This document shows positions 3,487 to 31,049 of a DNA stretch of 32,194 bases, piece after piece. Positions within the stretch are counted from its first letter, which is position 1; the number at the start of each line of letters is the position of its first letter. The notes beneath the pieces were generated by a model. That model saw only the letters and a list, made by a program, of their open reading frames with translations. It ran no database searches and had not been told where the DNA came from. This DNA is from Proteromonas lacertae (taxonomy: Eukaryota): NCBI GenBank assembly GCA_002245135.1, contig NGBS01001246.1:1-32194 (forward strand), written 5' to 3'. A program made the translations under genes and the position numbers.

Positions 3487-4319
3487 ACTATAACAATATT
3501 ATATACTATATTTGTTCATCATTTAAACATACTCATATTTCAGCACCTATATATACTATAACTATATTATATACTATATTTGCTCATCATTTAAATATGC
3601 TCATATTTCATCACCTATATATACTATAACTATATTATATACTATATTTGTTCATCATTTAAACATGCTCATATTTCATCACCTATATATACTATAACTA
3701 TATTATATACTATATTTGCTCATCATTTAAATATGCTCATATTTCATCACCTATATATACTATAACTATATTATATACTATATTTGTTCATCATTTAAAT
3801 ATGCTCATATTTCATCACCTATATATACTATAACTATATTATATACTATATTTGTTCATCATTTAAACATGCTCATATTTCATCACCTATATATACTATA
3901 ACTATATTATATACTATATTTGTTCATCATTTAAACATGCTCATATTTCATCACCTATATATACTATAACTATATTATATACTATATTTGCTCATCATTT
4001 AAATATGCTCATATTTCATCACCTATATATACTATAACTATATTATATACTATATTTGTTCATCATTTAAACATGCTCATATTTCATCACCTATATATAC
4101 TATAACTATATTATATACTATATTTGTTCATCATTTAAATCATGCTCATATTTCATCACCTATATATACTATAACTATATTATATACTATATTTGTTCAT
4201 CATTTAAATATGCTCATATTTCATATATATACTATAACTATATTATATACTATATTTGTTCATCATTTAAATATGCTCATATTTCATCACCTATATATAC
4301 TATAACTATATTATATACT
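3487..4319. repeat. 68-bp tandem repeat, ~12 copies
   Basis: Unit ACTATATTTGTTCATCATTTAAACATGCTCATATTTCATCACCTATATATACTATAACTATATTATAT recurs at 3505, 3573, 3641, 3709 and onward with few variants and no spacers. Confidence 0.97.
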
Positions 4320-8200: not shown

Positions 8201-8361
8201 TTAATAGAATATCTACAAAAATTTATAAAATTTTAAATTTTAATAATAGTATCAATATAAACATAGATATAAACAAAACAATTATATTTAATAATTTATA
8301 CATACAAGATAATGAGTACTATATATTTACATCCGATTTAGTTGAATATGAAAAACTATAA
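5293..8361 (+). CDS. CACTA/EnSpm-type DDE transposase (1022 aa, intronless) with acidic repeat insert
   Basis: Ordered CMC signatures: ISYDG (D1), YCSDS (D2), FCRTC (CxxC), YDTMHNLFNG ([M/L]H), KPSTHDIVHL (H-x3-H), GPL...FERSYKQLR (E). Uninterrupted ORF. Confidence 0.88.
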   Translation: MYFSLLLDCLDIKPTTIISNKILSLDVNSLVIQVIKYVKQKKNIPLVVIQESTNIIDIVNILFTGCFIKYKKEIYSSKDVIRRIEELFGVDNEILILFAVKYGNSSKFEEMKHLQYVNINNVLKIYKDVFNITDYLQFKQKIIKRKSSSKNTEKRKKRKLVNNINDNTANNMNENNGSSNPVEDEMDEGSELNGNSNPVEDEMDEGSELNGNSNPVEDEMDEGSELNGNSNPVEDEMDEGSELNGNSNPVEDEMDEGSELNGNSNPVEDEMDEGSELNGNSNPVEDEMDEGSELNGNSNPVEDEMDEGSELNGNSNPVEDEMDEGSESAINDDKCEGEEDIEDDSINNDNSEGEEDIEDDSINNDNSEGEEDNEDDSINNDNSEDEYGSYGNGEENDINRDRDDLMIYLLQFFLENGISEFKVSKFLKKINTINTIKNLKIKTSLKSIKEFVKIKIKFKERKKKYYIGIEESLKNILCNTNIKLINNNCKDKYKSIESSENYIKLKDNDQNTDFIHVPIQISYDGIQLSPFSSSKKSINLLSYKLLNLKNNIKLVEVIAADETEDGLNENRTNLIQELNNLYYNGFKIGDRNYNVYPLSYCSDSVATVKFFNLHNFISANHFCRTCDAKCTTKYVTVNNKKKKVRAREAMRGYNQNNFNKYKNKYGYSVKKLIKIFDDGKYKDFLLKTYKKESDFLDVKIFSIRFITYDTMHNLFNGLSIFYDDIIKKVNQIDVVNEIKFVYCNSSSFYNNIDLSNINKYNIIQKIYILLNIFPLILMKYINYVKRNRNIITDYSYYNICKSLFSIINVINNCLYYQYSDMSTTEMENELINKLMILELFYLFKPSTHDIVHLVLYLKCLGPLSHNGTTIFERSYKQLRKITLSNKKKLISVINSMELINSLNIYLYKQTDNKYKYHIKINNSKTVEQLFHSYTNIKIYSVVSYFDEDVMRFGIIRKKNNNILSINEIIVNRISTKIYKILNFNNSININIDINKTIIFNNLYIQDNEYYIFTSDLVEYEKL
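5827..6273 (+). repeat. 51-bp coding tandem repeat (SNPVEDEMDEGSELNGN), ~9 copies
   Basis: Identical units from 5827 to 6235 at 51-bp spacing, in frame within the transposase. Confidence 0.97.
6298..6447 (+). repeat. 48-bp coding repeat (EGEEDIEDDSINNDNS), 3 copies
   Basis: Three near-identical 16-aa units directly after the 51-bp array. Confidence 0.9.
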
Positions 8362-8717: not shown

Positions 8718-9177
8718 TTCCATTCAATTCACTACCTTCATCCATTTCATCTTCAACTGGATTACTATTTCCATTCAATTCACTACCTTCATCCATTTCA
8801 TCTTCAACTGGATTACTATTTCCATTCAATTCACTACCTTCATCCATTTCATCTTCAACTGGATTACTATTTCCATTCAATTCACTACCTTCATCCATTT
8901 CATCTTCAACTGGATTACTATTTCCATTCAATTCACTACCTTCATCCATTTCATCTTCAACTGGATTACTATTTCCATTCAATTCACTACCTTCATCCAT
9001 TTCATCTTCAACTGGATTACTATTTCCATTCAATTCACTACCTTCATCCATTTCATCTTCAACTGGATTACTATTTCCATTCAATTCACTACCTTCATCC
9101 ATTTCATCTTCAACTGGATTACTATTTCCATTCAATTCACTACCTTCATCCATTTCATCTTCAACTGGATTACTATT
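8718..9177 (-). repeat. Inverted copy of the 51-bp array, 9 copies
   Basis: Exact reverse complement of the 5827-6273 unit; it makes up most of ORF 8668..9186. Confidence 0.97.
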
Positions 9178-10217
9178 TATATTCATTTTATCTTATCATA
9201 TTAGGAACATCGTTAGTAGGATATACTAATTTTACTGCATTTGTGATATTTATTGATGATGCAACATTCTTTGGAATTGAAGTTCCCATTCTATACACAC
9301 ATTATTATAATCAGTTAAACATCTCTTTCTGAAGGTAATACTAACTACTCTTTATAGTTATTGTCTCATTGTAGCTCAAACTGAACGAATTGTTATATTT
9401 GATGCAAACAAAACACATGACTAATTCTGGAGCAACTGACAATATTATTTATCACAATTGAAAAAAAAATATACTATATAATATAAATTACATATTTCAT
9501 AAAATAATTGAAAGCATGACATTTACCATGTAAAGTTGCAAATTTTGACATTTTTTCATTTCTTTTTTCTTGATTTTCTATTAATTTTCTCCATTTCAAT
9601 AATTGCATTGGACTAATTATAATATAACTGTAAATGTACAGATGATACATACCTGTAAAATAAGATAATTTGTAGATTTAAAAATTAGCATTGTGAAATG
9701 TATTATTTATTATGAACTATAAATCAAAAAAGTATTATACTACTTATAATAGTTATTAATTATTCATATATTTATATGTTTCATATACTTAGAGTGAGAT
9801 GTTTCTATTGTAGATATTTGTGTTAGATATTCCATAGTTGTATATAACTTGGTGTATTAGTTATGCACGTATATTATTGATAAACAGAAACAAAAATTGC
9901 ATATAATTGGAAATGTTTCTTCATATTGTCAATATTTTTTATATTTTATGCATTAATGCAATTTATTATGCCTTAATCTCTATTTTAATATGATTATTAG
10001 TTATTTTTGAAGTAAATTTAAAAATCACAAATATTAGTTTTTCTTTTTTTTAAGCCTGTTCAAAAGTAGAATAGTTTCTTAATACACTGTGAAAATTTTT
10101 CATTCCAATTCATTCTTTAACATAATGAAAAATTGAAAAGAAAAAGTGTTAAAAAGAGAAAATCGCAAACAAGATCTGATCCTTGAATACTATCCCTATT
10201 TGCAAAATAGATTTTAG

Positions 10218-10377: not shown

Positions 10378-10692
10378 TTAACCATATACTTCTTTTTGTC
10401 GATTCATTTCATCAATATACTTTTGCATTGCTTCTTCACTTGACATACCTTTATAAGAATTCCAAGAATCCCACTTTCTTTTACCCTATATATACCAAAT
10501 AAATTTACAAATAAGTATATAAAATACAGTAAAATCTAAAAACCCTGGACGATCAGTAGAACAATCACCTACTGTTGCTTGTTTGTATAATCCATATATT
10601 TTAAGCTTATCTTCATCTGGCACTGGCTTAGAAGGTTTAAAGGAATTAACTTCAGCAGCTGATGCTTCAAATTGTTCTTTTAATGATGACAT
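10378..10692 (-). CDS. ACBP: Acyl-CoA-binding protein (90 aa, 2 exons)
   Basis: Exon 1, 10692-10528: MSSLKEQF...[16 protein letters not shown]...RPGFLDFT. 42-nt GT-AG intron, 10527-10486. Exon 2: [24 protein letters not shown]...YG*. Confidence 0.95.
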
Positions 10693-10772
10693 AATAGCAA
10701 AAAAGATTGTGTCAATAGTCAAAATAGATTTGATTTTAGCTTGATTCAACTTGACATTTCTTTTTTGAAATT
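10693..10772. promoter_or_regulatory. 80-bp divergent intergenic region (probable bidirectional promoter)
   Basis: The ACBP ATG (10692, -) and PPIL4 ATG (10773, +) are head-to-head. Confidence 0.55.
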
Positions 10773-12048
10773 ATGAGTGTTATACTTGAGACTAGTCTTG
10801 GTACTTTGACAGTGGACCTTTATTACAAGGAATGTCCAATGGCAGCAGAAAATTTTCTAAAATTATGTAAAATTAAATATTATAATGGTCATTTATTCTA
10901 TAATGTTCAAGCTAATTATATAGCTCAGACAGGTGATCCAACAGGAAGTGGAAATGGCGGATCTTCAATCTATGGATTATTGGATGGAGGTGAATCAAAG
11001 TATTTTAATGACGAAATAGTAAAATTTCTTACTCATTCAAGAATGGGAACAGTAGGTATGGCATCAGCAGGTCCAAATTGTAATGGAAGTCAATTCTATA
11101 TAACATTAAGAAATAAAATCGATTATTTAGATGGTAATCACACAATATTTGGCCAAATAATAGATGAAAATATAGATATACTAGATAAATTCAACCATCT
11201 CCATATAGATGAAGATGGAAGACCACTTATTGATATAAGGATATTACACACAATTGTTATTGAAGATCCATTTAAAGATGATGATAAATTGAAAGAATTA
11301 ATTCCTCCATCATCACCAACTTATTTAAAACCAAAAACAGAGATTGTTCCATCAAGATTGACATTAGAAGAAGCAAATAATAACGATGAGTATATAAATA
11401 ATTTATAATTTTATATTTTTATAATTTAAATCTTATAGTAATATATCACAAGAAGAACTGCAAAAACGAATAAAAAAACAAGAAAGTAAAACAGCAGCAG
11501 TAATATTAGAAGTAGTTGGTGATATCCCAGATGCAGAAATGAAACCTCCAGATAATGTACTATTCGTATGTAAATTAAATCCAGTTACTGAAGATAAAGA
11601 TCTAGAGTTGATATTTAGTAGATTTGGTGATATTAAAAGTTGTGAAATTATTCGTGATCACAAAACAGGAGATAGTTTGCAATATGCATTTATAGAGTTT
11701 GAGAATGCCAAACAGTGTCAAGATGCATATTTTAAGATGGATAACACACTAATCGATGATAGAAGAATACATGTCGATTTTAGTCAGTCAGTTGGTAAAT
11801 TGTGGAATAAATATAAGAAAAATCCTAACAATCTTACTAAAGGAGATGCTACTTTAGATGCAAGGAGTAATATTGGTAAAGTTAATAACAATAAACAGAA
11901 GGATAAAGAATCTGATGTGAAGAGGAAGAAGAATGAAAGTAGAAGTAGAAGCAGAAGCAGTCATAAACGTAAGAGAAGTGAAAGTAGATCTAAATCAAGT
12001 CATCATCATCATAAACACAGCCATCATCATCATAAACATTCTAATTGA
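10773..12048 (+). CDS. PPIL4: Cyclophilin-RRM protein (PPIL4/CYP59), 2 exons
   Basis: Cyclophilin domain ([28 protein letters not shown]). GT-AG intron 11390-11438 joins in frame to [24 protein letters not shown]...[11 protein letters not shown] (RRM) and an RS/His-rich tail. Confidence 0.95.
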
Positions 12049-12160
12049 TTATATTTATTTATTTAATTATCGTTATTACTGATTTATTTAAACTACATTC
12101 ACAAGTCATAGTATTTTTATATAAATATATGATTAACATACACTCATCTGATATCAACAT

Positions 12161-13025
12161 TATAATTCTATATGTATTACTAAGAAATGCTTACATAAAA
12201 CATAAATTAAAATAATAACTAAACAACTCAAATTACTTTTGAATATTATAATTCATCTTATCAACTATACGCTTTTCTTCTATTTTCTTCTTTTTCTTCT
12301 ATCATTAAGTATTCTGTTTGGTTTTTTATAATTATAGGTATATGGATGCTCAAGATTTAATTGAAATAATTAACGAAGAAGCTACTATTAAAACTAATAG
12401 AACAGGTATAGAATATGTAGAAGATCCTTATTTTATTCAAAGACGGAGTTATTTAAATATTTACAACGAAATGATGAAATATATAGCAATAGAAAATGGA
12501 ATCCAAAAGAATTTTGTTGTATATGGAAACTATGGTATAGGTAAAACAAATTTTTGTGCATTTTTATGCAAGCAATTTAAATCTTCCAAATTCCAAGTTA
12601 TATTTATACCCTCTTCAGATTTATATCTTTGTAAAGGAGTAGAAGAAAACAAATATAATCCTATTTCATACTTACCTCCACGAGATGTTAAAAATCCTTC
12701 TCAAAAATCTATAATCATCTGCGATAATATACCAATTTCAGAAGATGAATACAGTGAGGATGATGTGGTTATATTAGTGAGTGATATGAAGCTGAAAAAA
12801 TATAAAGTAATGCGTAGCAAGAGAGCTCCAATTCAGTTCTGTTTATTGCCTTTTAATAAGAATGAAATTGATTTTTATAAGAAAGTAAGAAGAAGAGAGA
12901 TTGAAAAATATGGAGGAATTCCTGGATTAGTTCTTGTGAATGTTGAGAAAGAAATTAATGAGTGTCAAAAGATAGATATTTATAGTGGTATTCCTGCTGA
13001 ATATAATGAATATGTAAATATTTAT
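12161..13025 (+). repeat. ~860-bp inverted duplication, left copy
   Basis: Highly similar to the reverse complement of ~29869-30728, including upstream non-coding DNA. Confidence 0.9.
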
Positions 13026-13061
13026 TACATAGATGTAAATATAAACATAATAAAGAAATAG
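12342..13061 (+). CDS. P-loop NTPase domain of a Crinkler/RHS-like protein, 3'-truncated copy
   Basis: YFIQRRSY, Walker A VYGNYGIGKT, IIICD and KYGGIPG. The paralogue near 30540 continues towards an REase-like domain; this copy does not. Confidence 0.6.
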   Translation: MDAQDLIEIINEEATIKTNRTGIEYVEDPYFIQRRSYLNIYNEMMKYIAIENGIQKNFVVYGNYGIGKTNFCAFLCKQFKSSKFQVIFIPSSDLYLCKGVEENKYNPISYLPPRDVKNPSQKSIIICDNIPISEDEYSEDDVVILVSDMKLKKYKVMRSKRAPIQFCLLPFNKNEIDFYKKVRRREIEKYGGIPGLVLVNVEKEINECQKIDIYSGIPAEYNEYVNIYYIDVNINIIKK

Positions 13062-13112
13062 ATTTAGAAATTATATCATTTATCATCTTGTATTTTATAA
13101 TAACTTATATGT

Positions 13113-13830
13113 TTATATTTCTTTTTTATTCCTTTTATTCCTTTTATTCCTTCTAATAAAACTACAAATATCATTCTGTTTTATTTTTTCTATATCTTCA
13201 AATGTAAATAATTTAATTCTTAAACCAGATTGTATATCTTTCGAATATTGTATAAAATATTGTTTATATTTATTACGCTTTTCTGTTACAAAATCATTTT
13301 TGTTAACATCTTCTATTTTCTTTACATAATATAATGGAAATACAACAACATTATTAATAACATAACATATATCATAACCTATTGATGTTGTAGTGTTTTT
13401 GAAATATTTATTAAATATATTTATCTGAATATTATTAAACTTAATCACATCACTATTCCATTTTGCATTATACATAATTGAATAACACACTATTTCATTG
13501 AATAATAGTTTATATAGAGGATGATTTTTATCTGATTGTATTTTATTCTTGAAAAAATCCTTTATAATTTCAAATTCTCTTTTACTACATCTGTGACTTG
13601 TACAGAAATATAGATATTTAAATACTTCATCAGATATATATTCTAATTGAACTTTATCAATTGAATCATAATCTAATACTTTGTATTTTACAATATAATG
13701 TGACATATCTGTATCTAATCTATCAACATTTAATTCAACATCATTTTCCAAATTCGATTCTTTACCTCTTTCACATGGAAAGAGATATTTCTTTATAAAA
13801 TTAAAATATCCAAGAGTATTCACAGTTGTT
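13113..13830 (-). pseudogene. 5'-truncated paralogue of the 25840-26550 segment
   Basis: Near-identical peptide and DNA to part of ORF 26095..27033 (NTLGYF..IKKYL...YFCTSHRCSKREFE). Starts abruptly and carries small deletions. Confidence 0.75.
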
Positions 13831-14244
13831 TCTTCATCTAATAAAAAGAAAGAAATAATGTTATATATATCTAATAAAAATGATGTATATGAAGTATTAT
13901 TGAAATATGTTAAAGTAGATGAATAAGTATTAATTCCAGATAGTGAAAATAAAAATAATAATAGTTATTTAGAAGTTTATTATAAATTAGAAGAACTATT
14001 TAGAAAACATATTAATAGTTGATTAAGTAAAGCAATATTACGTAAAATGAAGTTGAATGAGAATGATAGTTATAGCAATATGTATATAAAGAAAGGAATA
14101 GTTTATAATAAAGATTCTGATTTCGAAATGAATTCTGAGTTATATATTCAGTTTATCATCCTCCAAAAGCCAAAAATTTTGTTTGTTATATTTTGGATGA
14201 AAATAATTTCTTTGATTTGATAATAGATGGTGTATTTATAAAAG

Positions 14245-14936
14245 TACTTCTCCGAAATGCTGAACTAGCAAGGAGATCAACTAAGACTCTCAAGTCAACA
14301 TCTTCTCGTTTAGACAAAGCAATCATCGATCTGGCTAATAAGTATAAGGAGGTGATGAGCTTACCAAAGGAAACTTCCGAGGAGACTAGAAGTATTCTAC
14401 GTCAACTATTACGGGATGTTGCTAATATCGCTGAGAAGGACAACCCATCCTTTCAATTGATCCGAGAGCATGCTGCTAAAGCCGGTGTTGAGATTCCTGA
14501 CTTCAAAAGGAGTTCCGAATCTGATGGTAAGTCAGCTCCATCAAATCTTCATCAGGCAGTGGATTATATAAAGGGAAAGCTTCCAGTTGGAGAGAATGTC
14601 AAGGATATAATGAGGAGTCCACAAGTATGGGCAGCAGTAGTTAACTATCTTGGGCGAGGTAAAGGTGATTCCAAAGAGAAGGAAGAGGATGATGTTGGTT
14701 ATTATGCTAGACTATATGATCAATACCGTAAGGTGACTTTCAAAAGCCGTGAACGCAAGTCCTCCTCCGATGATGATGATGAGATTCCAATCCTTGAGGT
14801 TGATCCAGACTATGTGTCGGAGGACGATGCTGACGATGTTGAAGCTGATGATGAGTTTCCCTTTAATCATTCTCACGGTAAGATCAAGATGGTAAAGCCT
14901 TCTCCTTCTGAGTGGTACAAGTGCTTACAGTTGTAA
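14245..14936 (+). CDS. Viral hypothetical protein lacking its native 5' end
   Basis: The GC-rich frame begins mid-ORF; the predicted TTG start at 14193 lies in AT-rich host-like DNA. Acidic C-terminal part. Confidence 0.55.
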
Positions 14937-14971
14937 TCCTTAACTTCTTCAGTCTATCTATCTCTCCTAGT

Positions 14972-15499
14972 ATGTTTGGGACTTTTAAGCAACAGCACCT
15001 CCATCAACAAGAACTCTTTGAAGCCTTATCAGCGATCCGTGATCACTTCAAGAGAAGTCCTGGCAATCAGCATGTCATTGATAATCACTACCTCCGAGAC
15101 TTTAAGAAGAGAAGATATCTCCGACACTCCATCACGAACTACAACAGTGCCGATCAAGGAGATGTCTACGATTCCATGAATAACCTAGTTAATGAGATCA
15201 AGGAACTGCTCCAAGAGAATCCACCGTCAGTACGTACAATCGACATCCCCGAGTATGATGAACTGATGAAACGATCCTCCGATGATGACTTAACCTACTT
15301 GCTCCTGGATCAACTGATAAGGCTCCTTGTCTTGAGTGGTGGATCTAACTCCTCAGGCATCTTCAAGATAAATAAGCTAAAGCAACACCACCTAAGGAAC
15401 ATACAATGTATAATTAAGATAATCAAGGTAAGGAAGTTCTACGTGTCGAAGGAGTTACAGTCTCTTTATAAAGTAGTTCTTCGATCTCACGCTTACTAA
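14972..15499 (+). CDS. Viral hypothetical protein (175 aa from ATG 14972)
   Basis: Open frame with the island's codon style; converges on the ATPase gene. Confidence 0.55.
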   Translation: MFGTFKQQHLHQQELFEALSAIRDHFKRSPGNQHVIDNHYLRDFKKRRYLRHSITNYNSADQGDVYDSMNNLVNEIKELLQENPPSVRTIDIPEYDELMKRSSDDDLTYLLLDQLIRLLVLSGGSNSSGIFKINKLKQHHLRNIQCIIKIIKVRKFYVSKELQSLYKVVLRSHAY

Positions 15500-15553
15500 C
15501 ATTCTACTTAGTATTATAATCTTAAGTTCATTGTTGTTGATGGGGTTAATCAT

Positions 15554-16468
15554 CTAGTCCACAAAGAGTTGCTTATCGAAGTTGATCCTATACTGAGCCT
15601 TGTGCATATCATTGTATAGGAAGCTATAAGGAGTATGCTCCGTGGCCATATGATAGAACTCCTTGAAGAGTCTAAAGGGAGTTGCCAAGGCAAGGGACTT
15701 ATGTAGTTATTGAAGGTTGCTGCATGATATGTTCTTGAAGGCTAAGCAATAGTCCAGCTGAAGTCTTTGACCAGGAGTAAGGTCTGTAATGTACTGACTA
15801 CTGATAATCACCTTTGCCTTGTAATGCCTGTTCTGCTTAAGGAAGGTGATTAGCTGGGGATCTTTCAGGTCATTGCTAACATCATCGAATCCAAAGATGT
15901 TCTCAGCGCAGGTGCTATTCTCTTTATCGGGAGGTGGTAGATCGTGAAGTACTTCCTCCAGGTTGTTGGTCTTGTCTTCCTCGTTCACGATAGAGTCAAA
16001 CGTGTAGTAGTCGATCTTGTTGTACTCCAACATCTCCATGATCTTATCGTAGAGCACATCCTTATAGATCGTACCAACAAAGAAGTAGACCCTTTGATTC
16101 TTACCCTTGATCAGTATATGTTGAAGGACATTGTAGATGACTGTTGTCTTACCAGAGTTCTTCTTTGCTAGGAGGAAGATGTTACAGAAGGGTTCATCGA
16201 AGTAGTCATAGCCGACAACATCCTTCCCGTGACTGGAGGTCTTGATTTTCAAAGGCTTTACTTCTGCCTGGTTGATCTTCTCATACTCTATCTTTAAATG
16301 GCCCTTGGATGATCTCGGTAACTTCTCTGGTAAGTAAGCATCACCATGTACTTCATCATCCCCATCCTCATCCTTGAACTGATCATCTCCTGATCCTTTC
16401 AGTCTTCGCATCTTACTGAGATGAAGATCTCCAAAGGGTTGCTTTCTCTTGTTAACCATAAGCATCAT
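15554..16468 (-). pseudogene. A32/FtsK-HerA-type genome packaging ATPase with one in-frame stop
   Basis: Walker A AKKNSGKT, Walker B-like IFGFDD, and NRHYKAKVIISSQY...LTPGQRLQLDY. After TAA at 15707 the frame continues LHKSL...FKEFYHMATEHTPYSFLYND...RINFD to TAG at 15554. Confidence 0.92.
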
Positions 16469-16513
16469 AAGAACTAAGTACACAATCAAGAACTTATCGA
16501 TAAGGAACTTTAC

Positions 16514-17863
16514 TTATGCTATACTACGAATGACCGAGGTAGTAATCTCAGCTCTTCGTCCAGTGATCAAGTAGAATCGGTGATTCACAGACTTGTGTTC
16601 TAGCTCTGAGTTGTAGATCTCAACGGTGATCTTTAAATCTCCATATAGTCTTCTCCAAGCAATGGTCTTGACATTACTAAGGTTGTCACTACCGAAGTTG
16701 AGCACCTCAAAGAACTTCTCGGTAAAGGGCTTCTTGTTGAGTTGATCATACCAGCTTCCTCCAATGTACTTCTTAAGCAACTCGTAGCTATCGTAAGTCT
16801 CCATGTTCTGATAGTTGGGATTGTAGTTGAAGTCGTTGATCATCCACTTGAATCTTGCTTTGGAGTCTAAGAGAAGGATATGGTTCTTCATTGTATATGC
16901 CTGATAGACGATGGCTTTAATATAAGGACCAATAGAGCTGTTGATTGTAAAGGAGTAGTTGAAAACGCCGGTGCTGGTGATGGTGATGCTCTTATCGTGA
17001 TAGCCATTAAAGGGAATGGGCTTCTCAATGCAGGAGATGATAGACTTCTTGTTGCTGTTGAAGTCCTTATTGTATAAGGTTCTGATGCAAATGTCCTTGA
17101 TGTCACACTTTGCCTGAAGAGTAACATCCTCCTTGCTATATTCATACTTATCATCGTCGGTATCGAACTTCGCATCAGTAGCTGTACTCAATCTTCCGAA
17201 GTTGGTGATCTCTCCTCATTGGATGCTGAGAAGTAACTTCTCTCCCAAGAATAGATCAGTGGGATTTGCTAGGACAGTGTTATACATCTCATTGAAAGGA
17301 ATCTTTACAAGGAATTCCAAGTAGCCGTCTTTCACTTGAGTATCCCAGAAGGTGTTGTTTACCTTGGAGGTGCATCCATCATTTCCATTATCTACCGAGG
17401 TGAACTCCATACCAGGCTGGAGGATATCTCCATTCTTCTTTTGCCAGATACCATCGAAGTAAGTGTGTTGTCTATCGACGTGAGTTGTCTTCCTTTGAAC
17501 TTGTTGCATAAGCCCTCTGTATTGTTCATAAGTGTCAGTTACATAAAGCAAGTTGATTCCCGCAGCAGTGTGTACTCTAAAGGAGGAGATGTTGAAGGTG
17601 TTGTATAGGAGGATCTTCTCAGCCTTCTTGTTATTGTCAGAATCCTTATATCCGATGATTAGACGATACTCTAAGTAACTCTTGCTAAGGTTAATGCAAT
17701 TGTCGGTAGCTATCTCGAACATGACCTCTGCGGTTGATCCAGAAGTACCAGCATTGACCGAGGTGTTGCTCTGGGTAGGGTTGACTTTCACGTGTACGTA
17801 AAGTGAATCATAACTCTCGGAGTAAGCTCCTTGTTGAACACTTGCTGGGATGAATGTTGTCAT
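16514..17863 (-). pseudogene. Probable double jelly-roll major capsid protein (449 codons) with one in-frame TGA
   Basis: ORFs 17216..17863 and 16514..17191 are in the same frame (LSIQ*GEITNFGR). Beta-rich sequence; N-terminal VMFEI...INLSKSYLEY pattern typical of Polinton/PLV capsids. Located between protease and ATPase. Confidence 0.7.
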
Positions 17864-17914
17864 TGCCTTTGGGTAATTTCCTAAGTAAAATTGAACTAGG
17901 AAAAGACTTATTAC

Positions 17915-19804
17915 CTAGATTAAGTTAAAGGTTCTCTTGAGTAGTGCCATTTGCTTCTCGCCCTAGATAGAGTTGAAGTTAGTTGCCTCCTTGAAGGACA
18001 GGTTCCTTCCGAGGATATTGAATAGGAAGTAGATTGCAAAGTAACCACAAGTATCGGTGTTGACCTTCTGGTTCTTGATTCGATTGATCTTGAGTTGGTA
18101 CTTATCCTCAAGATTACCTTTAAGGTGTTGTATCTGCTAGATGAACCACGAGTAGTTCTTAGGGTTCTCTCCGAAGCTATCATAGTAGTAGATTTGCCTT
18201 CGATTATCATCCACGACTAAGGCAACCCAATGCCCGATCGTATTCTCAGCACTTGTTGTTGTAAGGGTACTGAGAATATATCCCCATCTATTTGTTCCTA
18301 AGACTCGAAGGTCTTGCTTAAGTTGATCCCATAAGAAGACTCCAGCGAATTGTCCATTGAAGTCACTGTACTCTTCCTTGATCAGCCTCTCGATATCGAA
18401 GTTGCTTAAGGCATCATCATGGCTAGCAACTTTACCTTCAGCAAAGTACTCATACTTATCCTCATGCTCCTTATCATCATCATCATCGATGATATCCGAG
18501 AGTGGCATCTCCAACATCGAGTTGATTTTCAGCTGTCTAAATAAAGGGTCTGTATCTGCATACACTACAGGTTGTTGTACTTGCTCTTGTCTACTAGGTA
18601 ATAGGGTTGGACTTTGAACTGCTGGCTGGGCAATTGGTATTGAAGGAACATAGGAGTTCACCTGGTCCTCCATTATCGAATAGCTGCCTCCTTGAACTTT
18701 ACCTAGACCTTTGAAGCCATTGAAGAGATTACCGATGATTCCTCCCATACCATTACCTAGTCCTCCTCCTCCATTGAGTTGATTGATCGCGTTAACCATT
18801 GCATCGTTAAGTGTTGTATCGGGACCTTTGTACTGAGTCTCTAACCATCGGAAGAAGTCATCGTTAGGAGTGTTGTTGTACTCAGCATTAAGTTTATCAG
18901 CTGCCTTATCAATCAACTGAACTACTGGGTGGTTCTCATCATATCCAGCGGCCTTAGCAAAAGACTTAAACTGTTCCTTGTTGCCTTGAACGAACTTAAG
19001 AAACTCTCCAGCTAGTGTCTGATGATCTGATTGAAACAACCTTCCTATACCTGGGATGGAACGTAGGAGACTTCCTACGATTGGGATCTGTCCTATTCTA
19101 CTTCCGAAGGTTGAGATTAATCCAACCATTCCAAGGATGGCTCCGATGGCACCTCCTATCTTCATTCCACGGTCTGTTATTCCTGACTGATTCTGGGTAA
19201 GTGAGTTACTAGTATTCCCAAAGGTGTTGATCATCCTGGAGACATCTTGTTGTTGCTTCAATAAGGAGTAAATATCATTATTACTAGTTGTGTTATCATA
19301 TAAGGGAAGAGTTCCACGGCTAATTGTTGTCCTTGAGTTGTTGACATTGTAAGGGGTCATGATGGAGCTCTGATAGTCCACATACTTCTGGTAATCATCA
19401 GCAAAGTAAGTTGCTGAAGGATGCACATTGAGCTTCTTACGTTCCTCCTCGGCAAGCAGCTTTCTAAGGTCAGGGTTTTTCACGAGGAAATGATCGTTGT
19501 AGGACTTGCTAGCAAGGTACTTCTCCTGGAGTTCACCGCTCTCCTCGATGTTGTTCTCCAAGGGATTGCTCTTAACGATTGATAAGGAATTACCTTCTCT
19601 GTCTTGAGTATCATCAGTGTTGTTGTTAGGAGCTATCTCTGATAGCAAGGTAGTTAAGTAGTGTAAGTCATCAGTGTTGTTTATCTTGACCTGGAACTCC
19701 TTCTTAAGCTTCTGCTGTAGTGCCTTCACAACTCTTGAAGTAAGCTTCTTCTTCCTTGAGTTGATTCCTTTGTCTTTATCGTTTACCATCGATATCTTTA
19801 CCAT
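17915..19804 (-). pseudogene. Adenain/Ulp1-clan (CE) maturation protease with a long N-terminal extension; two in-frame TAGs
   Basis: GHWVAL (His) and YYYDSFG (Asp); past TAG 18137 come NQKVNTDTCGYF (oxyanion Gln, catalytic Cys). Second TAG at 17963, final stop at 17915. Confidence 0.88.
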
Positions 19805-19841
19805 GGACGATTGACTATTGGAAAAGAACTTCTATTGCTTA

Positions 19842-20105
19842 TCAGTCCTCCTCGGGATTGTCAGGATAGTTGTACCAAGGCTTTACAATAACCGAGGACT
19901 TCAAAGCTTCTGATTGTTGATGAAGTTTATTTAGAGTCGATAGATTGAACCTCCTGGGATCTATCTTGTACTGCTTAAGTTGATTGTCCATCTCCTGAGT
20001 CTTTATCTCCAGGTGTTTTCTCTTGGACTTCCTTCTAGGATAGTTGTCAGGAGGATCTTCAAGGCACTTGTTCTTTCGATCGTAAGTTGCTTCTTCAATC
20101 TCCAT
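19842..20105 (-). CDS. Viral hypothetical protein (87 aa)
   Basis: Tightly packed, co-oriented ORF with a basic patch and the shared upstream motif. Confidence 0.55.
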   Translation of the reverse strand: MEIEEATYDRKNKCLEDPPDNYPRRKSKRKHLEIKTQEMDNQLKQYKIDPRRFNLSTLNKLHQQSEALKSSVIVKPWYNYPDNPEED

Positions 20106-20126
20106 TGAATGGAACTTAGAATTGAC

Positions 20127-20561
20127 TCAATACCGGAGGTTGTTGTTCTTTAGGAACTGCTCTATCTTCTTTTGATTCTCAAGAGCCTTCTTCTTACTAA
20201 TACGTTTCTTCCTTGCTTGTTGTGTATTGATCTTCTCGGGAGTGTTCATCAACTTGGCCTTTAAGTTCTTCAACCCATCGGAGATAAGCTTCTTGATGTT
20301 ACTGAGTACTAGTTCCATAGAGTAAGTTCTTGGAAGGGCATTGGAGATATCGTCCAGTTCATAGTCGTCAATAGCAACGATGTCAGGGATGGGAATGGGT
20401 ATTGCTGGGCCTTTAGATGTTCTTCTTATTCTTCTAGTCTTTATCAGCCTAGGTATATCAGTCTTGTTAAGTTGCCTTACAATGATCTTCTCTTTGCGTT
20501 TGTCTTTAAGCTTCTTGAGTATCTCAGGATGCTGCTTAAGCATTGCTTTGGTTCTAGCCAT
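20127..20561 (-). CDS. Basic viral protein starting MARTK (putative DNA-binding or core protein)
   Basis: 144 aa, K/R-rich ends; the first five residues are identical to histone H3. Confidence 0.65.
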   Translation of the reverse strand: MARTKAMLKQHPEILKKLKDKRKEKIIVRQLNKTDIPRLIKTRRIRRTSKGPAIPIPIPDIVAIDDYELDDISNALPRTYSMELVLSNIKKLISDGLKNLKAKLMNTPEKINTQQARKKRISKKKALENQKKIEQFLKNNNLRY

Positions 20562-20628
20562 TGTAATTGCCTTTAAGAAAATGACTTATATCATCTTCTA
20601 GTATTTACTTTCCCGAGTGATTCTTACG

Positions 20629-21261
20629 ATGGAATATCTCTTGTCCGATAACATCAGTAGCCGATCCTTGTTGATCTCCAACCTCACTTGTCTAGTCGAT
20701 AGTTACCAAGAGTGTACTGGAGCTTCATGGAACTTTACTTCCTTTGACTTTGTCACCATCCTTTCATCCGTACTACAAAACATCACTGTGAAGACTGATG
20801 GAAGCAGCAACAATAGTATGATCGATATGATTATCAACTACGGGATGACCGTCTTGTTAGCAATTGTCCTTACAGGTGTTGGCTATATCCTTAAGAAGCT
20901 AGGAGTGATCAAGAACATGTCCGACATCACTGAGATCAAGAACATGGTATTAACTCAACGAAGGCAAAGTACTGTCCTTGAGAGTGACTTAGAGGATATC
21001 AAGAAGACTTTACTGGGTAATTCTGCAAGAAGTAGTGGTAACTCTCCTAGCAATGGAGCTCCGATGATGTTGCTAGGCTCTTCAACTTCAACCATTGACA
21101 GTACTACTTCTCCTATCATTCCAGAGACAATCCCTGAGGGATCTGATGTTGAGTCCCTTGAAGTAAGCATCAGTGATAATGAGTCCGGCAAAGTACTTCC
21201 CAAGAAGATTGATATCTCCGATGGAAACTTACTTGACCCCAGCAATAGCATTGAATTCTAA
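20629..21261 (+). CDS. Viral single-pass membrane protein with Ser-rich tail
   Basis: Hydrophobic MTVLLAIVLTGVGYIL followed by KK, a heptad-like segment and a low-complexity Ser/acidic C-terminus. Confidence 0.65.
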   Translation: MEYLLSDNISSRSLLISNLTCLVDSYQECTGASWNFTSFDFVTILSSVLQNITVKTDGSSNNSMIDMIINYGMTVLLAIVLTGVGYILKKLGVIKNMSDITEIKNMVLTQRRQSTVLESDLEDIKKTLLGNSARSSGNSPSNGAPMMLLGSSTSTIDSTTSPIIPETIPEGSDVESLEVSISDNESGKVLPKKIDISDGNLLDPSNSIEF

Positions 21262-21277
21262 CTTAAGTCCTTTAACT

Positions 21278-22344
21278 TTATCGTATATTGTATCTCTTGA
21301 TGAGCTTGCGGTTCCTTGTTATACCAGCATCTTCATTTACCTTGAGGAGTTCATTTGACTTATAGCACTTATCGGAGATGTCCTTGACCGAATTCATGTT
21401 AGCATCTCCGAGGATGAAGGAGTAGGTGTTCTTTGCGATGATCCGATAGATGACGTCGGAGTAGAATAAGGCCTTCTCTATCTTGCTTACTCGACGTTCC
21501 TTAACTCTTACGAAGTCCCCAATATTGAACTGTTCCATGGCAGTGTTCCTTTGGTTACACATCTCGGCGTGATTGTAGAAGTACTGCTGGACATCTTCGT
21601 CGTAGAAAACTTCATTGGGAGTGAACCAGGATAAGGATGCCTTCGGTTTATTGTTGTACTGATCAACGACTTCATCAATAACTAGATTGAATTGTCTTAC
21701 GCTCAGAGCTCCTCGGGAGTGGAAGTCAACATCAGCTATTCTCTTGTAAAGCAATCTCTTGACCTCAGAGACTGAATGATCAAGGATGCTCATTACATGA
21801 TGCTCATCTACGTCCTTAACGATGTACAGGATCTGGTGTTGTATAAGATCGTTGATACATTGCGGCTATGCTCATCCCTTAAAGGTTCCTTCTCATGTCC
21901 TTGATAGAAGAACCTTTGCCATGCCTCAATCACTGAGTTATAAGTCTTATCAGGCATCCAGTAACAAAACACCTTCCTGCTAGGTACGTGAACTAGATAA
22001 AGCCATCCGTACTTGTGACTATTCTTTGGTTAGAAGATGACTATGTCCATTTGATAGCTGTCAGGAACTGGAATGATTTTTAAGGGCTTTATCCTGGTGT
22101 TGACGTAGACTACCTGATTGCCCGGTTGTCTGTAGTAGAACTCCTTTACCTATTCTGCCGAGATTGATTTATCGTAGTGATGTACTTGCCTTATGAACTG
22201 ATTAAGAGATAGGAATGGTAAGGTGTTGTAAGTCCTTTGAAGTAGATCCTCAGGAGATGAGAAGGTCGGAGGTTGATAGAACGTAGACTTCACGTATGGC
22301 TTTATCGGGATCTCCTTACTTGTGTTATTGATGGTTGCTTCCAT
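21278..22344 (-). pseudogene. Polinton-type retroviral-like (rve) integrase, disrupted
   Basis: Reading through TAG 22150 and TAA 22030 gives SYQMDIV and LVHVPSRKVFCY..PDKT. After a frameshift near 21850: HHVMSILD..., YNNKPKASL..TPNEV and FNIGDFVRV...YSDVIYRI, typical of Polinton integrase C-termini. Confidence 0.85.
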
Positions 22345-22400
22345 GGGATCATTGACAATCAGGTTACCTTCTTCTTCATCATTGGGAAAGACTTTACTAC

Positions 22401-22874
22401 TTAGAGACGATAGACAATGACTTTGTTGGTGCTTCTACTGGTCCTTGATTTACCACCTTTACTTCTCTTGGCCTTATGAAGTTTTACTTTACCTAGTCCA
22501 TTGGTTTTGAGAACATCACTTATCATCGGTCCAGCTACAGGAATGTACTTGCTTACCGTGGATAGCACCTTGCTTTTCTTAAAGAAGTTACCTATGTCCT
22601 GGAAGAATCCCTTGCCTTTGACTTTTGACTTCTTCGATTGTTGGTTCTCAAGGAAGCTGCTATAAAGGGTTGGAGTATAATAACAATAAGCAGGAGCCGG
22701 GTTGTACTTTCTCTTGGTTGCTTTATCGGAGCTAGCAAAGGGTAATGGCTCCAATGGATCCTCGTAATAACATTGATCGGTAAGATCATCCACGGAGGTC
22801 AATCTGGATCTACTATCAAGACTATCCTCGTTGGAGTATTGATGAGTGTTGGGATTGTAGGTATGGATAGGCAT
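22401..22874 (-). CDS. Putative virion core or membrane-lytic precursor (157 aa)
   Basis: VKGK/G protease-type site followed by amphipathic GFFQDIGNFFKKSKVLSTVSKYIPVAGPMISDVL and a basic tail. Confidence 0.6.
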   Translation of the reverse strand: MPIHTYNPNTHQYSNEDSLDSRSRLTSVDDLTDQCYYEDPLEPLPFASSDKATKRKYNPAPAYCYYTPTLYSSFLENQQSKKSKVKGKGFFQDIGNFFKKSKVLSTVSKYIPVAGPMISDVLKTNGLGKVKLHKAKRSKGGKSRTSRSTNKVIVYRL

Positions 22875-23116
22875 CTTACTTTGACCTTGGAATTAACAAA
22901 CTGGAATGCCATTCTTGGGAGCTTCTTAAACGTAGAAACCCCGTAGTTTCTACGGTCTATCAGTCTCATTTTTCCCTGACAATTGTTGAGCATTGGAACA
23001 CTTTACCTAGGTGAATTATAAGGCCATTGTAACTTACCTCTAGGAAGCTCCCGAGAATGCTTATCATTATCTTCAAGGGCCCTTGAGAAATCCACAACTA
23101 GCTAGAACCTCCCGGA

Positions 23117-23169
23117 GTTACCATTTGGTAACTTGTTACCATTTGGTAACTTGTTAACAATTGTAAACT
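23117..23169. repeat. Three tandem ~18-bp palindromic units (GTTACCA-TT-TGGTAAC)
   Basis: Two exact copies (23117, 23135) and one degenerate copy (23153), flanked by CTCCCGG on both sides. Confidence 0.85.
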
Positions 23170-23287
23170 CCCGGTTCCACGATTGGTTTCCAAGGTTCAA
23201 TTAAAAGCCCTTACAAGGTCATCAGCGTAGCAAGGAGACTCTAGATCATAATTAGATTCATCACCTCGAGGTAACCAACGCTTCTAG

Positions 23288-23462
23288 ATAGCTTCCAGGA
23301 GTCCCGGTAGGGAAGAAGACTACGTAGGCAATAGACCCCGTTAGGAGGAATCACGTAGTTAGTTTACGTAAGTGGGAATATGGTACAAGTGTCATAGTTC
23401 AAACGAGTGTTCTAGGAGTCCGTCCCCTTCTAGATTCAAAGTCTCATTTATATACTATATAC
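23288..23462 (+). repeat. Degenerate direct copy of the terminal region 24029-24165
   Basis: Shared blocks ATAGCTT.CAGGAGTCCCG, TAGACCCCGTTAGGAGGA, TATGGTACA and GTCCGTCCC.TTCTAGATTCAAAGT. Confidence 0.85.
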
Positions 23463-23676
23463 TTATCTAAGTGATAACTACGAGATCAATATGTACTAAC
23501 CAGTTACAGACAATCTACTAAGCATCATTACTAGATATGAAGAAAAACTCACTCATAGGAAAGAAGATATATTAACTATGAGGAAGGCAACATCATAATG
23601 TTCATACTCAGTCTATTATTACAGTCACTCAAGGTATTAAGATATTTCATGTTATTTTAATACTTAATTGGTAATC

Positions 23677-24006
23677 ATGCAATCCATTGTCATATGTAGT
23701 CGATGTAAGAAGGAGTTCCAATCTGAAGCTGATGGATGAACCTAACTCTATTGTAGTTCATTTAGAGCTCTCTTACGAACGGCAAAGCAGAAGACAATAA
23801 CCCGATGCCATGAGGAATGTAAAGCCTTGGAAGAGAACGCTGAACTCATAATCAAGACTATGTACTGCAGTAGATGCCATAACTACTATCGATGTTGTCC
23901 AAGATGTAGATCTAGGAAACCTACTGAGAATCAACAACCAGGCATGTTAACACAACACAGTATACATGAGATTCTCTTAGGAAGTATTCTGAAGATCGTC
24001 TCATAG
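23677..24006 (+). pseudogene. Small Cys-rich (Zn-ribbon-like) viral ORF with two in-frame stops
   Basis: MQSIVICSRCKKEF...G*T*LYCSS...YCSRCHNYYRCCPRCR...; stops at 23737 and 23743, no frameshift. Confidence 0.6.
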
Positions 24007-24091
24007 ATTGGTATAGGTATGTATAGAAATAGCTTACAGGAGTCCCGTAGGAAGTAGACCCCGTTAGGAGGATTCCCGTAAGCACCTTACT

Positions 24092-24292
24092 TAAATGGGA
24101 CTATGGTACATTGTCACAGAGTTCTAACGAGTTTTCTAGGGTCCGTCCCTTTCTAGATTCAAAGTTGACCTTTACGAGGCCTTCATCAATGCAATCGATG
24201 AAGGCCTCGTAAAGGTCAACTCTGAATCTAGAAAGGGACGGACCCTAGAAAACTCGCTAGGACTCTGTGACATTGTACCAGAGTCCCATTTA
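24092..24292. repeat. 201-nt terminal palindrome (96-bp arms, 9-nt loop, 5 mismatches)
   Basis: 24092-24187 pairs with 24197-24292; loop AATGCAATC. Coincides with the right GC boundary. Confidence 0.97.
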
Positions 24293-24426
24293 TATACTAT
24301 ATATATTGAGAATGATAACAAAACAAATGAAAAGATGAAAGAATCAATAAAAGTATTAAAATATATTTTATATTTATATGTAATTAAATAGAAATAGAGC
24401 AAAGAGAAAAGTGATGAGTTTATGTA

Positions 24427-25300
24427 TTGTATGATACAAAACAGGATATAAATACAATAGTTTTATCATCAATGAAAGCGTATATGCAAGATAATAAAGT
24501 GTATTTGGTGAGAGATTGTTATTATAAGATGTTGAATGTAATTTTCCTTCAAGATATAGATTTTGAAAAAGTTAGTCAAAGAAATTATTTGATATTTGAT
24601 CATAGTAAAATGGGAAAATCAACGTTTGCTATTCATAATATCTATCCTGATGTTAGTATATTGCATGAAATTAAACAAGACAATAAAACAATCGAAAAAT
24701 AGATTATTACAATAAGAGGAAAAAATGATATTATGAAGATGTAAAAATGATAATGTTATTAGCTAATCCATCTAAAGAAGAGTATAATACTTTTCAAAGT
24801 AAAAGATGTCCTTCAATACTGTATATACCTCAATTTACAAAAGAAGAAGTTATGAAGAGCGGAAGAAATTATATGAAGAAAAATATCCATTATATAAAGG
24901 TATTATAGGATATTATGATAATGAGAAAATGACTGAAAGTGATATAAATGCTTCAATAATTAATGAAAATAATAAGGCGATGATAGAAGAAATATTAAAA
25001 GGAATAGATAAATCTTAATTTTCAAAAGTTGAATATGATAATATATTTATTTATGATACATATGAAGATGAAAATGGTATTTTTAAATCCAATCGTATTA
25101 TATTTATATCTGAAGAAATGAAAAAAATGGTATGTGATACACTATTTGAAATAGATCGTTATTAATTTCAAACATCAGCATCAATTAATAAGGATTCTCT
25201 ATATGGCTTATTTTATATAGCTCCAAATAAAGAAGTAAGTATAAGATTAAAAGGCAAAGATAATTACAAAATGTTTTAAATATGAAGAGTTAAATTACTA
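24427..25300 (+). pseudogene. Degenerate Crinkler/RHS-like P-loop NTPase gene
   Basis: YLVRDCYY..., decayed Walker A YLIFDHSKMGKSTF, then LYKGIIG; multiple stops and frameshifts. Confidence 0.5.
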
Positions 25301-25839: not shown

Positions 25840-27454
25840 AACATTATTTATGCAAATCATTAACTACATTCTTATCAAGTTTATGTAAATCTTCAATTGT
25901 AAATATTTTAGGATATAAACTACATTGAATATCTTTTGAATAATCTTCTAAATATTGTTTAAATTTTTCATTTTTCATTATTTTATCTACATCATAATAA
26001 AATGGAAATACAATAACATTATTAATAACATAACATATATCATAATCTATATCAATATCAAATTGACCAATATAATAATTACCTTCTCCACATCCTATTG
26101 ATGTTGTAGTATTTTGAAATTATCCTTTAATATATTCATCTGAATATTATTAAACTTTATCACATTATTTTTCCATTTTGCATTATACATAATTGAATAC
26201 CACACTAATTCATTGAATAATAGTTTATATAGAGGATGGTTGTTTTTAGATATCATTTCATTTAAGAAAAACTGTTTTATATTTTCAAATTCTCTTTTAC
26301 TACATCTGTGACTTGTACAGAAATAAACATACTTAAATACTTCTTTAGAGATAAATTCTAATTGAACTTTATCAATTGATTCATAATCTAATACTTTGTA
26401 TTTTACAATATAATGTGATAAATGTGAATCTAATCTATCAACATTTAATCCAATATCATTTTCCAAATTTGATATTCTATATTCTGCATCACATGGATAT
26501 AGATATTTCTTTATAAAACCAAAATAACCAAGAGTATTCACAGTTGTTTTAATACAGTTTGTATAAATTTCATCCCAATAACTTGTTCTATTCGGGTTTA
26601 TTGTTGCTATATAATATGTTTTATATATTGCTGCAAAATATAAATGTCTTGGTACTCGATTGTATAAAGAAATAAGATTATCATCAATTGCATTTCCTAA
26701 ATCTTCAGGTAAACAATTTTCTTTCCATATATTTATCTCTTTTTCATTACAAATATCCAAATAGAAATATACTTTATTACCACCCTTAAAATCTTTTATA
26801 TTTTTATAGTTTTTATTATCTGGAGAACTGATATTTACAATTATACTACTTCTTCTATATATATTCTCATGAATATCATATGAATCACATATAATTATAT
26901 CTTCATCCATTATATTTTCTTCTAAATATTTTCCAATCAAATTATAGATAACAGGATTATCTGGACTTCCATCTTCTTTCTTTGAACTTTTGTAATATGT
27001 TAAACCTAAATTAATACCTAATTTTTCTTTCAATTGAATAAATTTTAAGATAAAATAGACAATAAATGTGGATTTTCCACATCCTGGTTGACCTCTCAGT
27101 AAATAGTAACTATTAATTTCATCTTCATCAGTTTCATATTTGATTAGTTTTTTTTAATCTTTCTTTCTCTCTTTCAACGATTTTATGTAAATCATCTTCA
27201 TTAATTGAAGGATCAACATTTACATTTATATATTTAAATAACTTCTTTAAAACAAATTCATTTTTTCTATAACGATAAAAACAATTATAAATTATATTAT
27301 ATTCTATTCTTTTCCAAAATAGTGGATAATAATCTCTCACCAATATTTTATGACTTGGATATTGAAATAATTTTATACTTTCATCAATTTTTATCAATAA
27401 TTCATTAAATGTAAAACTGGGAGATTTTTTACCTATATCAAATATACGTTTCAC
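25840..27454 (-). pseudogene. Crinkler/RHS-like P-loop NTPase gene, frameshifted
   Basis: ILVRDYYP in ORF 27134..27454. Walker A YLLRGQPGCGKSTF at ~27060-27105 lies between ORFs. Then IIICD, VNISSPD..NYK and YNRVPR, typical of CR-NTPases. Confidence 0.65.
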
Positions 27455-29343: not shown

Positions 29344-30545
29344 TTAATATACTCCTAAATAATAAAGAGTTTCAGCAAGTTCATCTATTCTTTTCTCCTC
29401 AAACATTCCTAATACGATTTCTCTTCTCTTTTCATATGTTTCTTGAAAGATCACATTGAATAAAATAGCTACAGATTCTTTAATAGGATGATGGTCAGAT
29501 ACTGTTACTTGTATTCCATTTATACACTTTTCATTAATCTCTATTGCATCAACACTTTCAAAATTAGATTGAAATGAACAATCAATCAACAATGGTAAAG
29601 CTTTTTCATTTAATTTGTCTAATTCTAATTTGTTATTAATTGTGTTTTCTTTATATTTAGATCCTTTATAATACAATACCAAATGTTCATAATAATAACC
29701 TCCTTCGCCTCCTATTCTGTCATTATCTCCTTCGATTTTCTTTGTTAATAAAAAATAATATTTTTTGAAATTATTATCATCTATAATAACTTCTTTAATG
29801 CCAAATCTTCAATATACTTTGAAATAAATTTCAAATTCTGAGGAATTTCATACTCATTTTTAACATCATAAATATATACATATTCATTATATTCAGCAGG
29901 AATACCATTATAAATATCTATCTTTTGACACTCATTAATTCTTTCTCAACATTCACAAGAACTAATCCAGGAATTCCTCCATATTTTTCAATCTCTCTTC
30001 TTCTTACTTTCTTATAAAAATCAATTTCATTCTTATTAAAAGGCAATAAACAGAACTGAATTGGAGCTCTCTTGCTACGCATTACTTTATATTTTTCAAG
30101 TTCATATCACTCACTAATATAACCACATCATCCTCACTGTATTCATCTTCTGAAATTGGCATATTATTGCAGATGATTATAGATTTTCAGAAGGATTTTT
30201 AACATCTCGTGGAAGGTAAGTATGAAATACGATTATATTTGTTTTCTTCTACTCCTTTACAAAGATATAAATCTGAAGAGGGTATAAATATAACTTGGAA
30301 TCGGAAGATTTAAATTGCTTTGCATAAAAATGCACAAAATTTGTTTTACCTATACCATAGTTTCCATATACAACAAAATTCTTTTGGATTCCATTTTCTA
30401 TTGCTATATATTTCATCATTTCGTTGTAAATATTTAAATAACTCTGTCTTTGAATAAAAAAGGCTCTTCTACATATTTATCCCTGTTTATCAGTTTTAAT
30501 AGTATTCACAGTTAATTATTTCAATTAAATTTGATCATCCATTTA
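29344..30545 (-). pseudogene. Crinkler/RHS-like NTPase + restriction-endonuclease-fold gene, frameshifted
   Basis: The 5' part is an inverted copy of the 12342 NTPase with indels. The 3' part reads SNFESVDAI...GIQVTVSDHHPIK, the D...QxT motif of CR-REase domains. Confidence 0.7.
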
Positions 30546-30728
30546 CCTATAATTATAAAAACCAAATAGAATATTTAATGATAGAAGAAAAGAAGAAAAT
30601 AGAAGAAAAAGCGTATAGTTGATAAGATGAATTATAATATTTAAAAGTAATTTAGTTGTTTAGTTATTATTTTAATTTATGTTTATATACGCATTTAAAA
30701 GTAATACATATATTAGAAGAATAATTAT
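29869..30728 (-). repeat. ~860-bp inverted duplication, right copy
   Basis: Reverse-complement match to ~12161-13025. Confidence 0.9.
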
Positions 30729-31049
30729 ATTCTATTAGTTTTTGTTAATCAAATTTTATGAGACAAAATCGTTCCTGGCGAAATCATTTTCTATAACCAT
30801 CTGCATAGCTCTAATGAATAGTGGTTTAATTATGTGATATATTAAATATGTTAATTAGGTTAATTATAAATGCTGTACAAGGTGTAAATAAAGAAAAAAA
30901 CCAGTTATGCTGAAAAAGGCTAGTGTAATTTCCTTTCTATAAATTAGGTTTTGGATTAATGAAAACACAATAAGAATGAGAAAGAAATATTAATTACTTT
31001 TAATTAACATAATTCTTTACTATACAATAATAATAAATACATCTATAAA

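Follow-up and report, generated by a model that had tools for sequence, protein, structure and literature searches.

A decayed, probably left-truncated Polinton-like virus with a long palindromic end in the genome of Proteromonas lacertae

A stretch of 32,194 nucleotides from Proteromonas lacertae, a protist of the lizard gut (assembly GCA_002245135.1, contig NGBS01001246.1, positions 1 to 32,194 of the forward strand; hereafter, the window) contains a GC-rich island that is an endogenous Polinton-like virus (PLV) with a predicted jelly-roll capsid. GC content is 0.414 inside the island and 0.245 in the rest of the window; this host value of 24% is near the 27% published for the genome. An order-2 Markov change-point analysis placed the edges at 14244 and 24287, in agreement with an earlier sequence-only reading, which had outlined a GC-rich island at 14245..24300. 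Eleven open reading frames (ORFs) occupy 8,560 of the 10,048 island bases (85%), and the widest gap between them is 802 bp. The features are as follows.

14244..24292, no strand: full extent of the endogenous PLV remnant (GC 41%; host 24%)
14245..14936, plus: ORF A, with an acidic tail and first ATG at 14355 (frame open from the junction)
14972..15499, plus: ORF B, 175 residues (ORF list; no usable match in Pfam or PHROGs)
15554..16468, minus: predicted A32-type genome-packaging ATPase, one premature stop (59 relatives, many with PF04665)
16514..17863, minus: predicted double jelly-roll capsid, 449 codons, one in-frame stop (about 95% identity to a P. lacertae capsid; fold of a relative)
17963..19804, minus: predicted maturation protease of the Ulp1/C48 type, extended by a long N-terminal region and with a premature stop in the protease domain (PF02902)
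19842..20105, minus: charged ORF, 87 residues (ORF list; no usable match in Pfam or PHROGs)
20127..20561, minus: basic ORF, 144 residues, 26% lysine plus arginine (composition)
20629..21261, plus: ORF of 210 residues with one hydrophobic segment (ORF list)
21278..22344, minus: likely rve (DDE-type) integrase, two stops and one frameshift (motifs collinear with rve integrases of relatives; shuffle test)
22401..22874, minus: core-like basic protein, 157 residues (family conserved in environmental relatives)
23288..23461, no strand: diverged repeat of the end sequence inside the element (about 82%), without the palindrome centre (sequence comparison)
23677..24006, plus: Cys-rich frame of 109 codons, two stops (ORF list; no Pfam match)
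24092..24292, no strand: terminal palindrome of 201 bp where virus and host DNA join (arms of 99 nt, 6 mismatches)

The cassette had been described as co-oriented, which is mostly true: seven of the 11 genes (the core-like basic protein, integrase, 144-residue basic ORF, 87-residue ORF, protease, capsid and ATPase) run along the minus strand; of the four plus-strand genes, one (20629-21261) falls within the minus-strand cassette. Five of the 11 frames are interrupted, with seven premature stops (the ATPase, capsid and protease have one apiece, the integrase and the Cys-rich frame two) and the frameshift in the integrase. An alternative genetic code as the source of the stops was rejected: the standard code serves for a host gene in the window, a sister capsid in print has no stop at the codon in question, and the integrase carries a frameshift besides.

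The capsid candidate gave no Pfam match. It has four full-length relatives at 32-33% identity, and a profile of relatives' capsids spans it from end to end (E 8e-14); 144 of the 153 capsid-like proteins collected by homologue searches score on the same profile, and Capsid_N occurs in 15-17% of the members of its Atlas neighbours. The fold was computed on an intact relative, P0003 (32% identity over the full length), rather than on the window's own protein. A model based on 33 aligned sequences (predicted local distance difference test score, pLDDT, 78.6) matched the capsid of PBCV-1 (Paramecium bursaria chlorella virus 1) best in the PDB (E 2e-12, template modelling score 0.58), followed by iridovirus, PRD1, mavirus and Sputnik, and a BFVD search agreed with these capsid matches. 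The first model, built from four sequences, was weak (pLDDT 52), although double jelly-roll proteins of viruses took all six of its top places. The PBCV-1-like fold predicted for the relative thus bears out the jelly-roll capsid proposed in the sequence-only reading. For the putative ATPase, 59 relatives were found among 205 candidates, the best being 44-60% identical, and the closest of them matches Pox_A32 at 8e-7. The putative protease domain matches PF02902 (Peptidase_C48) at E 4e-6, above the curated cut-off, and scores 88.5 bits against the relatives' protease profile; its best PDB match was S273R of African swine fever virus (E 0.02).

The virus had been thought to represent a probably undescribed lineage, a view that the published record does not support. 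Table S3 of Bellas et al. (2023, PNAS; PMC10120064) lists a P. lacertae capsid of 450 residues, gene_49653 on contig NGBS01001173.1, from which the window capsid differs at 19 of about 400 visible columns when compared by eye (about 95% identity), and whose fold was confirmed there as PBCV-1-like (E 4.9e-9 in Foldseek). Table S4 of the same paper gives 285 capsid genes for the P. lacertae genome, all in one 'new' cluster, tabulated outside the virophage, Gossevirus and Maverick-Polinton columns. By the same comparison by eye, the window capsid fits this cluster, defined at 25% identity, of P. lacertae endogenous viruses. Judged by its capsid sequence, the lineage is not new and belongs to a capsid-encoding PLV family already reported from this host. 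In the parts of the supplement that were available, nine of the 15 distinct P. lacertae entries are shorter than 400 residues. The family amounts by rough estimate to about 5.7 Mb of a 52-Mb genome (PMC10120064). What is recorded there, in the available parts, is capsids; gene content, integrase, protease and ends are not described. Proteromonas is not mentioned in the available main text of that paper or of two 2026 surveys, and the literature searched, with supplements covered in part, contained no description of the gene content or ends of the P. lacertae family. Among the publications returned by searches on Proteromonas together with polintons, endogenous viruses or capsids, only a preprint on Halocafeteria was relevant.

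The integrase is the weakest gene call of the island, and its rve identity is likely on sequence grounds. Its C-terminal piece is collinear with three rve integrases of relatives (Pfam-confirmed or clustered) and scores 12.0 bits on a three-sequence rve profile, narrowly above all of 905 shuffles (maximum 10.9). The N-terminal core alone is at chance level, its score being reached by 224 of 704 shuffles, and Pfam gave no rve match. Searches of the pieces against PDB and phage sets returned no meaningful match, and PHROGs gave a weak transposase match (E 0.014). The 157-residue basic protein is better placed, with 42.4 bits on the relatives' profile (0 of 991 scored shuffles) and a family of 34 ORFs in related loci; it may resemble the adenovirus core proteins pVI/pX. 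The 144-residue basic ORF is possibly a DNA-binding core protein. Six of the 11 ORFs (ORF A, ORF B, those of 87, 144 and 210 residues, and the Cys-rich frame) had no usable match in Pfam or PHROGs, nor did an Atlas search, made with ORF A only, give one. The sequence-only reading had found about half of the ORFs unrecognisable.

The right end of the element is a long palindrome, which had gone unnoticed, as had its internal copy. Its predicted fold has a free energy of -112 kcal/mol (z -22.9; 0 of 200 shuffles). The internal copy is joined at a six-base near-repeat and has the shape that slippage would leave. Because the two arms are not identical (6 mismatched positions) and the end sequence has a diverged copy further inside, a fold-back created by the assembly was judged an unlikely origin of the palindrome. 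At the left edge, neither an inverted partner of the right end nor a target-site duplication was found. The frame of ORF A is open right up to the left junction, with the first ATG only at 14355, and it is therefore likely cut by the left break. The edge without a repeat and the open frame together indicate that the element is incomplete on the left. These features suggest that the copy is most likely left-truncated and decayed.

Neither Pfam nor 48 relative-derived profiles, applied to all six frames of the island, detected pPolB (DNA polymerase B primed by a protein), a helicase or a primase, and the island, whose largest inter-ORF gap is 802 bp, has no space for a replicase. A recognisable penton was likewise not found: the relatives' penton profile identified no window ORF, with leave-one-out controls at 115-341 bits, and the match of 48 residues (10.8 bits) that it gave within the capsid gene was not accepted as one. 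The absence of pPolB, a helicase and a recognisable penton had been reported from the sequence alone, with two explanations offered for the replication genes, loss together with the left end or supply in trans; the first is the better of the two. The missing replicase most likely went with the lost left part, rather than being the sign of a new mode of replication. Absence of pPolB is normal for PLVs, and both fragmentary copies and replicase-free groups are already in print: the Halocafeteria preprint describes fragmentary copies without core genes, as in the window copy (bioRxiv 10.64898/2026.07.28.741278), and a survey describes the replicase-free group VC40, of 15-20 kb (bioRxiv 10.64898/2026.06.19.733378).

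To see what an intact copy may carry, we compared environmental relatives. The ATPase alignment led to 81 loci, namely one viral locus and the best 80 of at least 206 confirmed metagenome matches. Scans of viral contigs with the ATPase alone, capsid alignment A1, a relative's integrase, an integrase alignment and the end motif gave no matches. All six loci of at least 15.9 kb encode a replicase (SF3 or primase-helicase in four, one of which also has pPolB, and SF1 in two). At a length of at least 9 kb the figure is 10 of 15 loci, three of these 10 being the same virus; the five replicase-free loci are shorter and likely partial. A penton-like gene (about 270 residues) is present in all 21 loci carrying both capsid and protease, and its family profile matches PBCV-1 P1v1 at 5e-5. 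In a FastTree phylogeny of 64 capsids (441 columns, midpoint root, without named references; partial sequences, three duplicates and P0140-P0238 excluded), the window capsid groups with nine sequences (P0001-P0003, P0090-P0092, P0094, P0095 and P0097; 24-33% identity) in a separate long-branch clade with support 1.0. Those clade members that were looked up came from Logan only; the clade may stand for related viruses whose hosts are still unsequenced and possibly belong to other opalinatans. Individual loci had features of their own. L001 has a terminal direct repeat of 127 bp and assembles as a circle; in L053 (10614-15949), pPolB, a chromodomain-bearing rve integrase and an SF3 helicase are neighbours; and in L080 a gene for a 1324-residue GMC oxidoreductase lies between the penton-like and capsid genes (10387-14358).

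We conclude, with a probability of about 0.8, that the island represents one integrated member of a multi-copy PLV family of P. lacertae, a member that has decayed and has probably lost its left part. Intact members are likely to be 15-20 kb long, and the part absent here is likely to hold their replicase and penton. Such a member would enter the host genome by means of its rve integrase and would rely for copying on a replicase of its own, more probably a primase/helicase working from the fold-back end than pPolB. The ATPase would pump the DNA into the jelly-roll capsid, which the protease would mature. The window copy would have lost its left part and then decayed; in the assembled sequence none of the genes for ATPase, capsid, protease and integrase has an unbroken frame, so that it is not autonomous. 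By analogy, we lean towards a primase/helicase type starting at the fold-back end as the lost replicase: terminal palindromes in Halocafeteria go preferentially with non-pPolB replicases and rve integrases, in a model that its authors leave untested (bioRxiv 10.64898/2026.07.28.741278), and pPolB occurs in one of the six near-complete relatives.

Several observations weigh against this account. A codon-usage test of the 36 codons before the first ATG of ORF A did not speak for that frame. The relatives that supply the gene inventory are distant (ATPase 28-42% identity, capsid about 13-21%), so that their gene content is a prior and not a proof. Many of these relatives have their penton gene between those for protease and capsid, a space that is 99 bp in the window; for truncation to explain the lack of a penton, the order of genes would have to be a different one here. 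The longest contigs of the closest relatives, 9,235 and 9,425 bp, are near the size of the island, and the gene set of the family is known here from one broken copy. In a broad survey of polisuviruses, as far as its accessible text goes, DDE integrases are strongly correlated with pPolB, which weakens the choice of a non-pPolB replicase.

This correlation leads to a variant of our explanation that differs solely in the lost replicase. Intact copies would have the Polinton configuration (pPolB, rve integrase and Ulp1 protease), like the MELD virus of Blastocystis, and the palindrome would be a by-product of end repair or integration. The likely rve integrase and the protease are there in the window, the rve-bearing relative L053 has pPolB, and the related host Blastocystis has a PolB-integrase virus (PMC8502044). 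The rarity of pPolB among the near-complete relatives and the replicases that accompany the Halocafeteria palindromes speak against the variant, as does the older internal copy of the end (about 82%), which points to the palindrome as a feature of the lineage; the published table, moreover, has these capsids outside the Maverick-Polinton columns (PMC10120064). A protein-primed PolB as the lost enzyme is thus possible and somewhat doubtful, and the same holds for the configuration as a whole, which we keep as a tentative second choice.

It is improbable that the family is natively about 10-12 kb long and replicase-free, perhaps even without a recognisable penton, so that only the left terminus was lost here and copying proceeds from hairpin ends by enzymes of the host, a helper virus or a sister element. 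Such a family would account for an island that neither contains a replicase nor has room for one, for the empty penton slot beside protease and capsid and for the closest relatives on contigs of at most 9.2-9.4 kb, and VC40 shows that replicase-free groups exist, in that case at 15-20 kb (bioRxiv 10.64898/2026.06.19.733378). On the other hand, no terminal repeat marks the left end, which means that the element is incomplete; replicases in 6 of 6 near-complete relatives and penton-like genes in 21 of 21 loci point the other way, and contigs of multi-copy elements, as the sources available to us indicate, often end at assembly breaks. Very unlikely is an element intact in the cell, with stops, frameshift or left junction created by the collapse of near-identical copies in the assembly: some stops in endogenous viral elements of protists do vanish after read correction and the family has 285 copies (PMC10120064), but the capsid differs by about 5% from its published sister along its length and the palindrome arms at 6 of 99 positions, as in ageing copies, and the nine short entries among 15 supplement capsids indicate that interruption is common, though this may itself be an artefact.

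Beyond its borders, the virus is located in a rearranged, repeat-rich host zone. Fragments of host genes are repeated around the island, one pair inverted (12121-13025 and 29868-30759, 93%) and a second direct (13172-13831 and 25867-26549, 77%), and one fragment is a P-loop sequence with weak STAND/KAP matches in Pfam, presumably Crinkler-like. The idea that the two flanks are halves of one host gene was rejected, as they are not collinear. Upstream lies a host cyclophilin-RRM gene of the CYP59/PPIL4 type (10773-12048, plus strand), which uses the standard genetic code and is apparently split by one short AT-rich intron near 11390-11440. Its closest matches in a cyclophilin search, limited to 113-363 aa, are 87-88% identical, and the named ones 54-58%. 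Further upstream, an intronless ORF of 1022 residues (5293-8361, plus strand), which we assume to be transposase-like and which has no real Pfam match, contains a tandem array of 51-bp units (5818-6273); just downstream of the ORF the array recurs in inverted form with 99% identity (8718-9185). An AT-rich 68-bp tandem array occupies 3486-4319 (12.3 copies, 96% matches), and a run of TATATACTATA occurs in this array as well as after both copies of the viral end sequence. A search of positions 14000-24500 against Rfam gave no match.

A single broken copy shows no new mechanism. What it adds is the gene set and the long palindromic end of a family that makes up perhaps one tenth of the P. lacertae genome and that appears, in the parts of the literature available, as capsid records only; it is the first such view that we found. 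It also links a clade of viruses of a gut commensal to a free-living environmental PLV group. With about 285 copies per genome, the question whether hairpins replace protein priming in non-pPolB PLVs can be checked by simple comparison. Should the family prove to be a native 10-12 kb hairpin-ended virus without a replicase or conventional penton, copied by the host or a helper from its 200-bp fold-back ends, which we consider a long shot, it would be a minimal satellite in a gut protist, one that integrates and has a jelly-roll capsid together with ATPase, protease and integrase.

Among known systems, Polintons/Mavericks and the Blastocystis MELD virus (PMC8502044) share the Ulp1-type protease, ATPase, double jelly-roll capsid and, probably, the rve integrase with the window element, which differs in its palindromic end, in a capsid outside the Maverick-Polinton clusters and in pPolB, not found in this copy. 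By strict Polinton/Maverick criteria, then, the Ulp1-family protease is present and pPolB is missing from the window copy. As regards mavirus-type virophages, the fold of P0003 ranks PBCV-1 above mavirus and Sputnik, and the published table lists the P. lacertae capsids outside the virophage columns (PMC10120064). Gosseviruses (GKS1)/VC35 share the cysteine protease in a PLV setting, together with variable replicases and integrases (PMC7805220; bioRxiv 10.64898/2026.06.19.733378), and have stramenopile hosts (PMC7805220), whereas the published table has the P. lacertae capsids in a cluster outside the Gossevirus columns (PMC10120064). The protease-bearing environmental PLV group (L001, L002, L053, L063, L073 and L080) has a homologous ATPase, capsid, long-N-terminus protease and basic protein and, in some members, an rve integrase; its members are 16-20 kb long and carry a penton-like gene and a replicase, neither of which was found in the window. 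The Halocafeteria seosinensis PLVs lack a protease, their capsids cluster apart from those of Proteromonas, and the palindrome illustrated for them is 52 nt long compared with 201 nt here. Nevertheless, the virophages/PLV subtype 4 of that species share with the window element a bigyran host, probably an rve integrase, and a palindrome at the element tip (bioRxiv 10.64898/2026.07.28.741278).

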